DNA of 18,223 nucleotides from Leptolyngbyaceae cyanobacterium (GTDB lineage: Bacteria; Cyanobacteriota; Cyanobacteriia; Phormidesmidales; Phormidesmidaceae): NCBI GenBank assembly GCA_050331235.1, contig JBHJHA010000003.1, positions 1 through 18,223 of the forward strand, in the 5' to 3' direction. The notes beneath the pieces were generated by a model. That model did no database searches and was not told the DNA's origin. It saw only the letters and a program-made list of their open reading frames with translations. Position 1 is the stretch's first letter; every line of letters starts with the position of its first letter. Positions 646-18,084 of this stretch are shown here, piece by piece. A program made the position numbers and the translations under genes.

Positions 646-960
646 TCAGCTAGCTTCCTGATGGCGCGGATTGGTCACGACCAAATTGAACTCCCAACCC
701 GGAATTTCGTTGATCTTTTCGGCCAGTCGCCGCAAATCTGCCGCCCCATTGAGGGTCAGGTTAGGTCGGGATCTGACATCAGCCACAATGGTCTCGTCTT
801 CGCCGTGGGCAATCAAGCCAATCGAACAACCCTGCAGGGATGTCGGTAGCGAGTCATCTTCGGGATAAACCACTACGTCGTATCCGGCGCGGTCATATTC
901 ACGCGCCAAACGGAGCAGTCGCCGATGTTCTAATGGAGTTTCAAAAGCTCGACTTTTCAT
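646..960 (-). CDS. Small restriction-endonuclease-fold protein (REase/AHJR-like), catalytic motif degenerate
   Basis: The pattern LAREYxxxGYxVxxxP....LP..L....(PD)LIA..ED.TIV(EVK)SR...L..LA..I...PGWEFNLVVTN fits the family. The PD position reads IG and the ExK position reads DVR. Confidence 0.6.
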   Translation of the reverse strand: MKSRAFETPLEHRRLLRLAREYDRAGYDVVVYPEDDSLPTSLQGCSIGLIAHGEDETIVADVRSRPNLTLNGAADLRRLAEKINEIPGWEFNLVVTNPRHQEAS

Positions 961-975
961 GACGGTTGCCGGACC

Positions 976-1395
976 TTAGGTGACACTTTCAGGGTTTCTC
1001 AGGAAGTCTATTTTAACATGCAAAAATTCTTCGCCCTTACAAAACCCTTCAGCGAGGGCGACCGACATTCCTTTCACGCGAAAAGAGCCGTTGAGATTAC
1101 GGCGTCGGTTATCCAGTTCTGCAATTTGGTAGTCGTCTCGGTAGATTACACCGTTGAGAGCATCCAAGATGGGCTTAATAATACGCTCACTGTCCAAATC
1201 TTGCCCGATGTTGCCAGGAAGCGCATCGTAAAAATGGGTGATCTTTACGTAAAGTTTATCTGCCAAGGGCGATCGCTCCCCCCAACAGTACTGAGCGGTT
1301 GCTCTGACATGCTCGCGCCAAGCTTTCAAGGCTTTTTTATCCTTGGCTCGGTGAGGCACCGGTTTACCGATAATCACAAAATCGAAAGGCAACAC
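976..1395 (-). CDS. RusA-family (Holliday junction resolvase-like) endonuclease
   Basis: LPFDFVIIGKPVP N-terminus, D-S-E-R-IIKPILDALNGVIYRDDYQI core (canonical DxDNxxKxxxDAL...DD) and C-terminal EEFLHVKI. Start is most likely GTG at 1395; the ORF track extends it to TTG 1431. Confidence 0.8.
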   Translation of the reverse strand: MLPFDFVIIGKPVPHRAKDKKALKAWREHVRATAQYCWGERSPLADKLYVKITHFYDALPGNIGQDLDSERIIKPILDALNGVIYRDDYQIAELDNRRRNLNGSFRVKGMSVALAEGFCKGEEFLHVKIDFLRNPESVT

Positions 1396-1603
1396 AAACC
1401 CAATCCCCGATGGTGTTAGCCGGTAGCGCAATTACAAAGTCTTCCCTGATCACAAGCGTGCTAGGCAAACAATCTTGCTGCACAATCATGCAAGAATGTC
1501 AAGCCTCTTTCAATATAAGCGAACAGGATGAGATTGTGGGCTGAGAAACGTCCCATCAAATTGAGCTTAGGGTGAATGTTGCCGCCTGCTAACGCCGCGT
1601 CAC

Positions 1604-14485: not shown

Positions 14486-14869
14486 TTAGGCTTCCGGCTT
14501 TTCTGCCTCTGCCGCTCGCAAGGCTTTGAGCTCTGTTTCTAAACTTTCCAAGCGGGTCTGTAGCTGCTGGTTGGCTTCCAAGAGTTCTTGCGATCGCGCG
14601 CTCAAGTATGGGTCATTTTCCCACCAGTTGATACCCATTTCGCGGGCCTTATCAACCGACGCCACCAGCAGGCGGATGCGGATAGTCAGTAGCTCAGTAG
14701 AACCGACAGAAACCGAAATATCCCCCGCGATGACGATACCTTTGTCCAGCACTCGCTCTAGCACATCCACCAAAGTTGATCCTTGGGTGGCGGTAGCCAT
14801 GGGCCGCTGGTTAGCGCTGGCAGAGCGTGATAGGGATGGTCCGGTCATAATGGCCCTTGTATTTGGCAT
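14486..14869 (-). CDS. gvpJ: Gas vesicle protein GvpJ
   Basis: GvpA-like core STLVDVLERVLDKGIVIAGDISVSVGSTELL.IRIRLLVASVDKAREMGINWWENDPYLS plus a coiled-coil tail; position after gvpN. Exact start is uncertain. Confidence 0.93.
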   Translation of the reverse strand: MPNTRAIMTGPSLSRSASANQRPMATATQGSTLVDVLERVLDKGIVIAGDISVSVGSTELLTIRIRLLVASVDKAREMGINWWENDPYLSARSQELLEANQQLQTRLESLETELKALRAAEAEKPEA

Positions 14870-15049: not shown

Positions 15050-16333
15050 CTATGGAGACTCGGTCGCGTGAGCTATCACCCGATAAATAGCAGGTTTACC
15101 AGAGCCATTGTGCTTTTCTAGGTAGCCAGAATCCACTAGCGATCGCAGCGCATCAACGGCTTTAAACCGAGTCAGAGAAAGTGCTGCCTCGATCTCTGCA
15201 AGCGAAGCAGCCGCCTGTTTCGTCACGAACTGTACGATACCGGCCTCAACCGGTCCCAAACCGTCGTTGGAGACTGGTTTTACCTCATCATCAGCGGGTG
15301 AGGAGACTAGTGGTAGCCCGTCGTCTGCTTTTGGCCCCTCTTCTGAGGAAAAATCAGATACAGATGCGGTTGCCGAGGGCTCGGCAATCGGCTCGGACAG
15401 AGGCTTCTCATCACTGGTCGCTGTCGCGGAGTTCAGCGCCATTGCCGTTTCCACCGTGAGTTCGTTAAACAGATCCCATAGAGTATGGGTAGCGGAAGAT
15501 AGCTCAGATGTCATGCGAGACAAGAGAATATCGCTGCACACATCGCGAAAGTCAGCATCCTCCGTCATAATTACTACACCGTGCTCATGACAAATATTAG
15601 CAATCATCAAGCTCGGGCGTAGACTGGTGGCGCATTGGCCGTTGGCCTGCCCCTGAAATGCTTTTACTAGCCGCACAATCAGCAAAGCATTGGCCGGTTC
15701 GATGCCGACTTTTTGCACCAAAATCTGCTGCTGGGTAAGCTCGTCTGGCTCCGGCATGTGAATCGTGATTAGGCGATCAAGCAGGGCATCCTGTGTACCG
15801 TGTACCCCGGCATACTCCTCTGGGTTAGAGGTGAAAATCGCTCGAAAATGAGGGTTGACCCGAAGATATTCAGGCCGGTGACCACTGGGCGGCAACACTA
15901 GTAGCTTTTCTTCTAGGGCGGATAGTAGAACGTTGTTGACCTCTGGACGAGACCGGTTGAACTCGTCGTACACCAGAGTGAAGCCCTCTCGGCAAGCGAG
16001 GGTCAGCCGGGAATCAACCCAATTGTGACGGAGTTCGTCCTCGACTTTGACCACGCTGTGGATGAAGTTGTCGACCACCTTTTTGCGGGTGTATCCCGAC
16101 TGATTCCCAATCAAATCCGAGGTTTTAAACTCGTCGTCGCCAAACACCAACATAATGGGACGGCTCAGGAGGTCGGCCAGATGCAGGGCCAGGGTCGTTT
16201 TGCCAGTGCCGGCAGGACCGCGTAAGTGAACGGAATAGCCGGATTGAAGGTATCGCAGGGCTCGACGTGCAATGCGTTCAACGGCTGGGGTACTCACAAA
16301 GTTGCGGGGGCGGGCTTGAAGAACAGTGCTCAC
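15050..16333 (-). CDS. gvpN: Gas vesicle AAA+ ATPase GvpN with acidic linker and C-terminal winged-helix-like domain
   Basis: Motifs [35 protein letters not shown] and [12 protein letters not shown]. The GTG start overlaps the gvpC stop (GTGA). Confidence 0.96.
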
Positions 16334-17319
16334 AGAACGGCTTCCTCTTGAATACGGTAGGTTCTATCTTTTTGCACGATCAGCTCTTTTTGCAGCAGCG
16401 ATCGCAAAGCATCTACGGCTTGAAAGCGATTAATCCCCAAACTGGATTCAATCTCGGTCAAGCGGGCTCCACCTGACTGGGTTTGTAAAAAGTCAAAGAC
16501 CTCTTCCTCATTAGGTTTTGCGGCTTTGGCAAGCGTCACTTTAGAGACTGGTGCCGCCGCCGCTAAGGTCGCAGCCATAGGGCGGGCAGTTCCAGGCTGA
16601 GGCTTTGGACTAGCTTGACGCACCACTGATTTGCGGGCAGGCCGGCTGGGGGGTGTTGGTTCTGTCGCGGGCGACACCCTCGGGGTATCTCCCCAAACGG
16701 CTTGGCGGATGCCGGTTCGAAAGGCCTGGCGTTGCTGACGATAGAATGCGAAATCTGCTTGCATCGCGTCGACCTGCTCAGCCAGCGCCTCGCGATCGCG
16801 CTGGCGCTGGGTCTGCTCAGCCACGGCTGTAGCCTGGCGAGTTGCCGATATTTTCGTCAAATATTCTGAGACGGTTAGCTTCAGCTCATCTACAGATTCA
16901 GTCAACGCTTGCTTTTGCGGGTCGCGCTGGGCTAGGCGGGTGGTCTGATAATGAGTCAACTGCTCATGGGCTGCCTGCTTAAGCGCTGCCACTTCTGCCG
17001 AAATTGCTTCGAGCTCAAGTTGGTGCTCAGCTCGTTGGGCTGCTACAGCCTCCCGCAGTTCCATGTCAAAGCTCTGCAACTGATTAGCAGTCTCTCGAGA
17101 CATCGTCTGACGCTGCTGTCCAAGCTGAGATAAATACAAGCTGGTATCGACCTGCACAGATGCGTAATACGCCTCAAGGGCACGACGGAGGTTTGCCGCA
17201 GTTTGCTCGCGTATCTGTTGATGATGATTCAGGTTAGACAGGACTTCGTTTCGACGCTGAGCCAGCTCCGCTTGGCGTTTTTTTCGACTCGCTTGCCATT
17301 CTTCCTGGAGTGTCGCCAC
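16330..17319 (-). CDS. gvpC: Gas vesicle protein GvpC (divergent 33-residue repeats) with basic linker and C-terminal winged-helix-like domain
   Basis: Lies between gvpA and gvpN. Helical Q/A/R-rich region has 33-aa periodicity (L6, R13, mostly L24 and L31). Likely start is GTG 17319 preceded by GAGGGAG; the ORF track start is ATG 17358. Confidence 0.85.
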
Positions 17320-17481
17320 GATTGTCAACTCCCTCTCAAATTCAGTAATCGTAGACATGACTAATACCGATTTCCAGCGCGACCTCTATTCAAAAAAGGC
17401 CAGTAAAACTGAGCGATGAAAGAGCCTTCACGGTTTGTCTTTCAAAAGGTTGGAAATTCAGCAGACAGAATCAAGTAGTCC

Positions 17482-17562: not shown

Positions 17563-17781
17563 CTAGGTTGCAGGAACGGCTGCCTGTGTTGTTAGACCTA
17601 CCGCTTCGGCATACTTTAGATAAGTCTCGACTGACGCAATAACGACTCTTGCCTCAATAGCCAAGAGCTCGATACCCACGAGGGAAACACGAACCCAAGC
17701 ATCCACAACGATACCTTTGTCCAAAATGCGATCCACAACTTCAGCCAAGCTGGATGAAGAGTTTACTTTTTCAACAGCCAT
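17563..17781 (-). CDS. gvpA: Major gas vesicle structural protein GvpA (72 aa)
   Basis: [68 protein letters not shown] Shine-Dalgarno upstream of ATG 17781. Confidence 0.99.
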
Positions 17782-18084
17782 GGTATTAAACCTCAATATC
17801 TGTTTGCTTCAGGAATTTAGAAACGACTATCTTAGCCTCAAGTTGGGTATCTCTATGGCTAGCAGTCCATTTCATGTTTTGCACAGGTTCATATTGCCCA
17901 GCCCTCAAAGGTCCTCAACACTCTTTACATATCAAAATGAATTTGTCAGTTTATTTAGCTCGGAGCAAAGTCTGAGGTCTTCTAAAAGTAATTGAGTAAA
18001 TTGAGGTATTTACTGATGTCAAAATCAATCGTTTCTCACGGATTTCAAACAACTTGAGACTAATCAATCAGTATTTTTACGAAC

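Follow-up and report, generated by a model that had tools for sequence, protein, structure and literature searches.

The window analysed here is the whole of contig C3, 18,223 bp long, of a Leptolyngbyaceae cyanobacterium assembly. Its minus strand carries four gas-vesicle genes, which code for the shell protein GvpA, a GvpC-like protein, the ATPase GvpN and a gvpJ-type paralog of GvpA (Table 1). The remainder of the contig consists of housekeeping genes. We found that the GvpC-like protein and GvpN are built alike. Each has a conserved body, a disordered linker of 55 to 65 residues and, at the C terminus, a winged-helix domain of about 60 residues. An initial annotation of the window had drawn attention to these two C-terminal domains, the tails, and their coordinates and sequences proved correct by translation.

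Table 1. Positions of the gas-vesicle genes and protein segments in the window, and of further gvp genes on contigs C67, C91 and C113 of the same assembly (ORF, open reading frame; pLDDT, predicted local distance difference test)
Feature	Location	Strand	Evidence
gvpA, major gas-vesicle shell protein	17563..17781	-	Pfam Gas_vesicle PF00741, E 1.9e-16; translation
GvpC-like gene, 342 aa, between gvpA and gvpN	16330-17358	-	Translation, gene position
GvpC-like residues 1-225, Q/R/E-rich helical part, end motif FR..IRQAVWG	16684..17358	-	
GvpC linker, residues 226-281, P/A/S/K/R-rich, net charge +6	16516..16683	-	Translation
GvpC winged-helix tail, residues 282-342 (last 61)	16333..16515	-	AlphaFold2, Foldseek, VIA
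gvpC/gvpN 4-nt overlap GTGA, start GTG (gvpN) over stop TGA (gvpC)	16330..16333	-	ORF coordinates
gvpN, 427 aa	15050-16333	-	AAA_5, E 1.2e-18
GvpN AAA+ core, residues 1-305	15419..16333	-	Pfam AAA_5, E 1.2e-18
GvpN linker, residues 306-360, acidic, S/P/E/D-rich, net charge about -10	15254..15418	-	Predicted disordered, pLDDT about 40
GvpN winged-helix tail, residues 361-427 (last 67)	15053..15253	-	AlphaFold2 of full-length protein
gvpJ-type GvpA paralog, last gvp gene of the contig	14486..14869	-	Pfam Gas_vesicle, E 1.6e-15
gvpK and gvpF	C67:15387-16649		
gvpG	C91:10574-10843		
Second GvpF/L-family gene	C113:9779-10450		

The start of gvpA was taken as the ATG at 17781; the ORF listing opens this frame at a TTG at 17796. 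The gene order gvpA, gvpC, gvpN, gvpJ holds in 80 related loci collected in a scan of one genome per species, with the GvpC-like gene between gvpA and gvpN in all 80 and the gvpJ-type gene in the same place after gvpN. These loci bear the names Halomicronema, Leptolyngbya, Nodosilinea, Phormidesmidales, Elainellales, Oculatellaceae, Stenomitos and Pantanalinema, among others. The gvpC stop and the gvpN start share a 4-nt overlap of the GTGA or ATGA type in 56 of the 76 related loci that hold both genes, an arrangement that points to coupled translation of coat protein and ATPase. The gvp genes of the source genome do not form one cluster. They are dispersed on at least four contigs, and each group is flanked by unrelated genes.

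Protein bodies and homologous tails

The GvpC-like protein as a whole gave no match at E ≤ 1 to PF01304, the family of the 33-residue repeat, and its residues 1 to 281 gave none at E ≤ 10. The same scan found the classical GvpC of locus L088 at E 5.8e-36. When a 36-member profile was compared with six classical GvpCs by hhalign, the probability was 98.7% (E 2.4e-16 over 198 columns), a score that may be inflated by the helical, Q/R-rich composition. The alignment ended on a common motif, F-R-x-x-L-x-x-S-V-[FW]-G. Homology to GvpC in the wider sense was thus found at the profile level and in the position between gvpA and gvpN, and we read the protein, from its sequence, as a diverged GvpC with an added tail. 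It shares with classical cyanobacterial GvpC (PF01304) the gene position, a homologous helical part, the N-terminal start and the end motif. However, classical GvpC ends at its ...FG motif, whereas in the window protein this motif is followed by a linker of 56 residues and then the winged helix.

The identity of GvpN is given by its AAA_5 core and its position after gvpC. The AAA+ core is 57 to 80% identical over the full length to 38 other GvpN proteins, with more than 120 invariant columns. Against the GvpN cores of cyanobacteria in an even 401-genome sample of the phylum, its identity is 61 to 77%. The core and the operon position are those of the known GvpN AAA+ ATPase, but in the window protein the core is followed by an acidic, disordered linker and, at the C terminus, a winged helix.

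When the whole GvpC-like protein was aligned with the whole GvpN by BLASTP, only the C-terminal ends aligned (37 of 118 positions identical, E 5e-8). A hidden Markov model (HMM) built from GvpC tails only found the window GvpN tail at E 1e-11, and an HMM built from 21 GvpN tails only found the window GvpC at E 3.5e-13. Because each HMM was built from one paralog alone, the test is not circular. Among 9590 ORFs of the related loci, the GvpC-tail HMM retrieved 68 of the 78 GvpN ORFs; its remaining matches were the GvpC proteins themselves and one frameshifted fragment. The likeness reported in the initial annotation is therefore real, although its hand count of 20 identities in 40 columns is not reproduced: a MAFFT alignment of the window tails has 16 identities in the 40 core columns, and 22 in all 66 aligned columns. 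A tblastn search of the whole genome with the GvpC tail gave two copies only, those on GvpC and GvpN. Sequence comparison thus confirms that the GvpC and GvpN tails are one homologous domain of about 60 residues, with a similarity far beyond chance.

The two tails also each carry a highly iterated palindrome (HIP1) site, as had been pointed out, at 15139-15146 and 16398-16405. The window holds 24 such sites, and the source assembly (4.8 Mb, 52.6% GC) holds 6482, or one per 740 bp. We therefore rejected any significance of the common site. Given this abundance, it is a by-product of codon choice in the L-R-S-L stretch and not a signal.

An AlphaFold2 (AF2) model of the GvpC tail, built on a 58-row alignment, had a mean pLDDT of 84.6 and showed helix 1, a short strand, helix 2, helix 3 and a β-hairpin in this order (H7-18, bridge 23-24, H25-32, H36-48, E52-55, E58-61; H, helix; E, strand). 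In the AF2 model of full-length GvpN, residues 361 to 419 reached a pLDDT of about 97, with the elements H361-373, E375-377, H378-385, H389-401, E405-408 and E416-419. Residues 306 to 360 were disordered in this model, and the AAA+ core was poorly modelled (pLDDT mostly below 60). Both tails have the winged-helix topology helix 1-β1-helix 2-helix 3-β2-wing-β3, with a longer wing loop in the GvpN tail. The dimerisation helices that flank the wHTH of MarR-type proteins at the N and C termini are absent: besides the hairpin, the modelled domain comprises three helices and a short C-terminal one of 4 residues.

Foldseek aligned the GvpC tail to MepR with a TMq of 0.80 and to ArsR with 0.81, both at probability 1.00, and TM-scores for IclR and Z-alpha were also about 0.8. 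The best E value was 2.7e-3, with no match at E ≤ 1e-3, so the fold assignment rests on the TM-scores, the VIA Z-scores and the topology. VIA-align gave a Z of 11.1 and a root-mean-square deviation of 1.8 for 66 residues aligned to 1ku9_B. It found 165 chains at Z ≥ 8, of which those listed are winged-helix domains, and the globular domain of histone H1 was among the fold matches (Z 9.3). At the sequence level the matches were weak. Pfam TrmB (PF01978) scored 21.4 bits for GvpN (E 2.3e-4) and 16.5 bits for GvpC, both under the gathering cut-off of 25.6, and weak matches to MarR_2 and HTH_27 were also seen. A precomputed PF01978 match exists in 10 of 21 GvpN clusters and in 6 of 67 GvpC-like relatives. 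The tail profile gave only weak matches to Protein Data Bank sequences (CodY, PapI, Z-alpha and AspA; best E 0.0054), and a protein atlas feature search returned scores of 0.83 or lower, within the noise range. The AF2 topology, the Foldseek TM-scores and the VIA Z of 11.1 agree with the original proposal that both tails are like a winged helix-turn-helix (wHTH).

Distribution and descent of the tails

The scan that yielded the 80 related loci was seeded with a GvpC-tail pattern, so that every one of these loci has a GvpC tail by design. The GvpN tail was found in 67 of the 80, which is 67 of the 74 with a complete GvpN. The complete GvpN lacks the tail in 7 loci; in three more GvpN is cut by the contig end, and in the last three it lies beyond it. 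The tails thus co-occur across genomes, as had been predicted. A word-indexed search added 66 GvpC-like relatives, some of them named GvpC by UniRef or nr, and a search with the GvpN tail added 20 GvpN clusters with the tail.

In the 401-genome sample, 50 genomes have GvpN, and the GvpN tail is present in 23 of these. Fifteen of the 23 also have the tail on the neighbouring GvpC-like gene, so that all 15 genomes with a GvpC tail have a GvpN tail as well. The 8 genomes with the tail on GvpN alone belong to one family. Seven of them were examined: all have tandem gvpA copies, and six have a classical PF01304-type GvpC without a tail. The GvpN tail in clusters with classical tailless GvpC is a diverged copy. 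No tail was found in the other 27 GvpN-bearing genomes, and 10 of these tailless GvpNs that we inspected end in short, mostly acidic C-terminal extensions. The pairing of the two tails therefore stands as co-occurrence but not as an exclusive association: the GvpN tail is also found beside classical tailless GvpC, six or seven lineages have the GvpC tail only, and about half of the sampled GvpN-bearing genomes have neither. Judged by gene content, it is established that the GvpC/GvpN tail pairing is widely conserved and that the head, as we call the domain when considering its function, is dispensable for gas-vesicle clusters in general.

A few loci depart from these patterns. The low-coverage contig of L035, one of the seven loci whose complete GvpN has no tail, encodes a tail fragment out of frame with the GvpN core (L035:3035-3187). 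The GvpN of L100 (L100:591-1694, minus strand) is without the domain and retains an apparent remnant of helix 1. The remnant and the fragment look like signs of tail decay. In L091 and L092 a short GvpC-like protein of about 232 aa with a diverged tail is encoded after gvpA (L091:12540-13256, L092:5867-6592), in a family that otherwise has classical GvpC, and a tail-bearing gvpN lies about 6 kb from it.

A profile search of 1.84 billion representative proteins gave 290 matches at E ≤ 1e-3. The best 150 of these comprise 124 GvpC-like proteins, 7 GvpNs, 18 short pieces of linker plus domain and one unrelated repeat protein. The domain is C-terminal in every one of these 150, and no free-standing regulator with the domain was recognisable among them. 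The winged-helix tail family is thus almost confined to gas-vesicle proteins. In two other families (f34 and f35), 24 weak matches fell in frames of 35 to 187 aa that resemble generic winged-helix proteins. A 485-aa ORF away from the gvp genes in L095 (L095:4540-5994) matched the tail profile weakly, at E 1e-4.

We built a tree from 82 GvpC and 77 GvpN tails, leaving out the L035 fragment and the weak, unrelated L095 match. The label GvpC or GvpN changed 3 times on this tree, against a mean of 53 for shuffled labels. When the GvpC tails were constrained to one clade, the likelihood was better than that of the free search (approximately unbiased test, p 0.91). The two copies therefore look like the product of one old duplication followed by separate descent without homogenisation. 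Recent gene conversion between the tails was rejected, because the GvpC and GvpN tails of the same genome never group together. The tree and the cross-paralog HMMs thus bear out the suggestion that the domain was duplicated between a surface protein and the ATPase.

The two copies evolve under different constraint. No other part of GvpC is as conserved as its tail, where the mean column identity is 68%, against 32% for whole GvpC-like proteins. In 36 species, 17 tail columns do not vary; among them are the G-A-R-L that precedes helix 2, a run of eight residues in helix 3 and the D-R-x-Y of the wing. The GvpN tail varies more, with a mean column identity of 44%, and nearly all long branches of the tree are GvpN tails. 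The Arg that opens helix 3 is present in each of the 58 tails compared, whether from GvpC or from GvpN.

Candidate ligands of the winged helix

Across the family, the median GvpC linker is 85 residues long (34 to 148), and its median net charge is +6. The charge is positive in 62 of 78 loci, a count that leaves out three GvpC proteins in which the anchor motif is missing. The composition of the GvpC linker is mainly A/P-rich (A 23%, P 19%, K 7%, K+R about 11%). For the GvpN linker, the medians are 88 residues and a net charge of -16, with a negative charge in 63 of 68 loci. In 48 of 67 loci the two linkers are of opposite sign, the GvpC linker being basic and the GvpN linker acidic. The winged-helix domains themselves are both slightly acidic, with a mean net charge of -1.3. 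As in winged helices that bind DNA, their conserved basic residues are located on helix 3 and in the wing, and helix 1 and the C terminus are acidic.

We suggest protein docking as the role of the winged-helix tail: it would be a head that connects GvpC, GvpN and further proteins of the vesicle. This is a tentative reading, to which we give a probability of about 0.45. The winged helix would be a vesicle-specific docking head on a flexible stalk. GvpC would present many copies projecting from the vesicle surface, up to six heads would hang from the expected ATPase ring of GvpN, and the heads would bring GvpN to GvpC-coated vesicles. This could happen in two ways. Both heads may bind the same conserved vesicle component, or the GvpC head may bind GvpN, with the GvpN head as a tethered look-alike. 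The function of the head would resemble that of the globular domain at the C terminus of haloarchaeal GvpC.

Several lines of evidence favour docking. The domain is restricted to Gvp proteins, and the copy that would act in trans, on GvpC, is strict, whereas the copy in cis, on GvpN, is loose. The apparent translational coupling of gvpC and gvpN, the mostly opposite linker charges and the binding of haloarchaeal GvpN and GvpO to the C-terminal domain of GvpC point in the same direction. The slightly acidic net charge of the domain and the lack of an operator common to the gvp upstream regions (see below) also count for docking. The invariance of 17 GvpC-tail columns in 36 species fits an invariant partner, and the fast drift of the GvpN tail is what would be expected of a copy held near its target in cis. 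Since many gas-vesicle clusters are without it, the head would be modulatory and not essential.

Other observations weigh against docking. The GvpN tail is present where GvpC is tailless, so a pure GvpC-GvpN pairing is not the whole story, and the GvpC tail stays invariant in 6 lineages in which GvpN is tailless. The top-conserved residues lie on the canonical DNA-reading elements, namely the Arg that opens helix 3, the basic end of this helix and the Arg of the wing. The fold gives no information on the ligand, because it matches DNA-binding winged helices (MarR, IclR, ArsR, Z-alpha) and protein-binding ones (ESCRT-II, ScpB, RPA32) equally well. Charge compensation between the linkers was looked for across loci and not found (Spearman +0.30). 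The computational tests made identified no binding partner; a complex prediction for the GvpC tail with the GvpN tail scored 0.11 against a mark of 0.32, which speaks neither for binding nor against it. Finally, the 80 loci were selected by their GvpC tail and come from related species, so that their counts are not independent.

The GvpN-only tails, the invariant GvpC tail beside tailless GvpN and the conserved DNA-contact positions make nucleoid tethering a serious rival. PhaF and PhaM are reported to tether polyhydroxyalkanoate (PHA) granules to the nucleoid, and linker histone H1 consists of a winged helix plus a basic tail. By analogy with PhaF and PhaM, the heads would bind nucleic acid with low sequence specificity and gain avidity from the many copies on a vesicle or the six on a GvpN ring, and the nucleoid would anchor vesicles and growth ATPase, for their spacing or inheritance. 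The closest sequence and structure matches of the tails are indeed mostly DNA-binding wHTH proteins (TrmB, MarR_2, HTH_27, CodY, PapI, Z-alpha, AspA, MarR-like, IclR and ArsR). The N-terminal Arg of helix 3 and the wing Arg and Tyr are kept in both paralogs and mostly in the diverged GvpN-only tails too, and the canonical face holds most of the conserved basic residues. The common ground with PhaF, PhaM and histone H1 is an organelle-surface protein with a possible DNA-binding end, together with a GvpC linker that is basic in most lineages. However, this linker is A/P-rich, with about 11% K+R, and is not histone-like overall, and the second copy of the domain sits on an ATPase behind a strongly acidic linker, which should oppose DNA binding. 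Non-specific binding also would not need eight invariant consecutive residues in helix 3. The negative net charge of the domain, the lack of free-standing DNA-binding relatives among the best 150 of the 290 profile matches and the missing MarR-type dimerisation helices speak against a nucleic-acid tether as well, and we regard it as doubtful. Its fuller form, in which hundreds of GvpC heads on basic A/P-rich stalks tether gas vesicles physically to the nucleoid by avidity, the GvpN head brings the growth ATPase to the same matrix, and the chromosome serves as a scaffold for positioning and inheritance, is unlikely.

The extreme conservation of the GvpC head could also be explained by a self-complementary interface. 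GvpC heads would then pair with those of neighbouring vesicles and with GvpN heads, and would bundle gas vacuoles or fix them to a site in the cell. Such homotypic cross-linking would account for the persistence of the GvpC head in the 6 lineages with tailless GvpN, and A/P-rich stalks of 34 to 148 residues suit a spacer role. On the other hand, GvpN heads are much less conserved than GvpC heads, which is unexpected for a symmetric interface, and the GvpN-only tails are left unexplained. No direct evidence of self-association was obtained, and we give this explanation little probability.

The initial annotation had also raised autoregulation, in which free GvpC or GvpN would bind an operator at gvp promoters. 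Such a sequence-specific feedback regulator could tune the dispersed gvp genes, which lie on four contigs and would need co-regulation, and an invariant recognition helix would be expected under a conserved operator. We scanned 78 of the 80 extracted gvpA upstream regions, leaving out two shorter than 300 nt. Simple exact-word scans, which would miss degenerate sites, found no 7- to 10-mer, inverted repeat or direct repeat common to the 78 regions beyond clade-limited ones. The best 10-mer occurred in 21 of 78 regions and the best inverted repeat in 13 to 17. Nothing of 7 nt or longer was common to all four gvp upstream regions of the source genome, and only three 8-mers occurred in three of the four, two of which overlap HIP1, the third being GCTAGCCA. 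The lack of an operator common to the upstream regions is weak negative evidence on autoregulation. The domain is also without a dimerisation element, and we consider feedback regulation very improbable.

The clade-limited signals include a 22-nt element, TGGGCA-9 nt-TGTGCAA, at about -140 from gvpA in 20 loci of one clade (for example, L016, L018 and L022). A related copy lies in the window at 17879-17900 on the minus strand. This element, which would speak for feedback, may be part of the gvpA promoter region or a regulator site.

Relation to described systems

The tails have the fold and topology of the MarR, TrmB, IclR and ArsR wHTH regulators (TMq about 0.8; Z 9 to 11), with weak sequence matches. 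Unlike these regulators, the tails of the window proteins stay below the Pfam cut-offs. They are single domains of 60 residues that have neither dimerisation helices nor a ligand-binding domain, and they are fused to a structural protein and an ATPase; DNA binding by them is putative.

The best functional analogy is haloarchaeal GvpC, in which a compact C-terminal domain follows helical repeats and an extended linker according to the available text of PMC10903477. The architecture of the window GvpC is the same, a likeness of layout and not a shown relationship. In Halobacterium salinarum, the C-terminal domain of GvpC binds GvpN and GvpO (PMC9372576), and the accessible part of that paper reports no copy of the domain on haloarchaeal GvpN. 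For cyanobacteria, GvpN was assayed in Anabaena sp. PCC 7120 and is described with an N-terminal AAA domain only in the text available (PMC7204071). Two further sources describe the GvpN ATPase and its β-hairpin insert, and the portions available do not mention a C-terminal domain (PMC10903477, PMC11445434). Our literature search, which did not cover subscription journals, figures or database domain pages, yielded no published account of a winged helix in any gas-vesicle protein. The winged-helix pairing on GvpC and GvpN is real and conserved, and it appears to be undescribed in the literature searched.

The growth of gas-vesicle bicones into cylinders depends on GvpN, as stated in the available parts of PMC10903477 and PMC11445434. 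A targeting head common to GvpN and the shell-coating protein would be a concrete handle on how GvpN finds the shell and acts on it. Deleting or swapping the head should alter GvpN recruitment, vesicle number or size, clustering or position. Since the head is also found on GvpN of classical clusters with tandem gvpA, assembly work and work on engineered acoustic reporter genes may already be using such a GvpN. If the ligand were DNA, gas vesicles would join the organelles that are positioned on the nucleoid.

Away from the gas-vesicle genes, adjacent small ORFs on the minus strand of the window (646-1431) match an AHJR-like restriction-endonuclease fold (E 2.7e-19) and a RusA Holliday-junction resolvase (E 8e-7). 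Judging by these matches, they may be the remnant of a mobile element.

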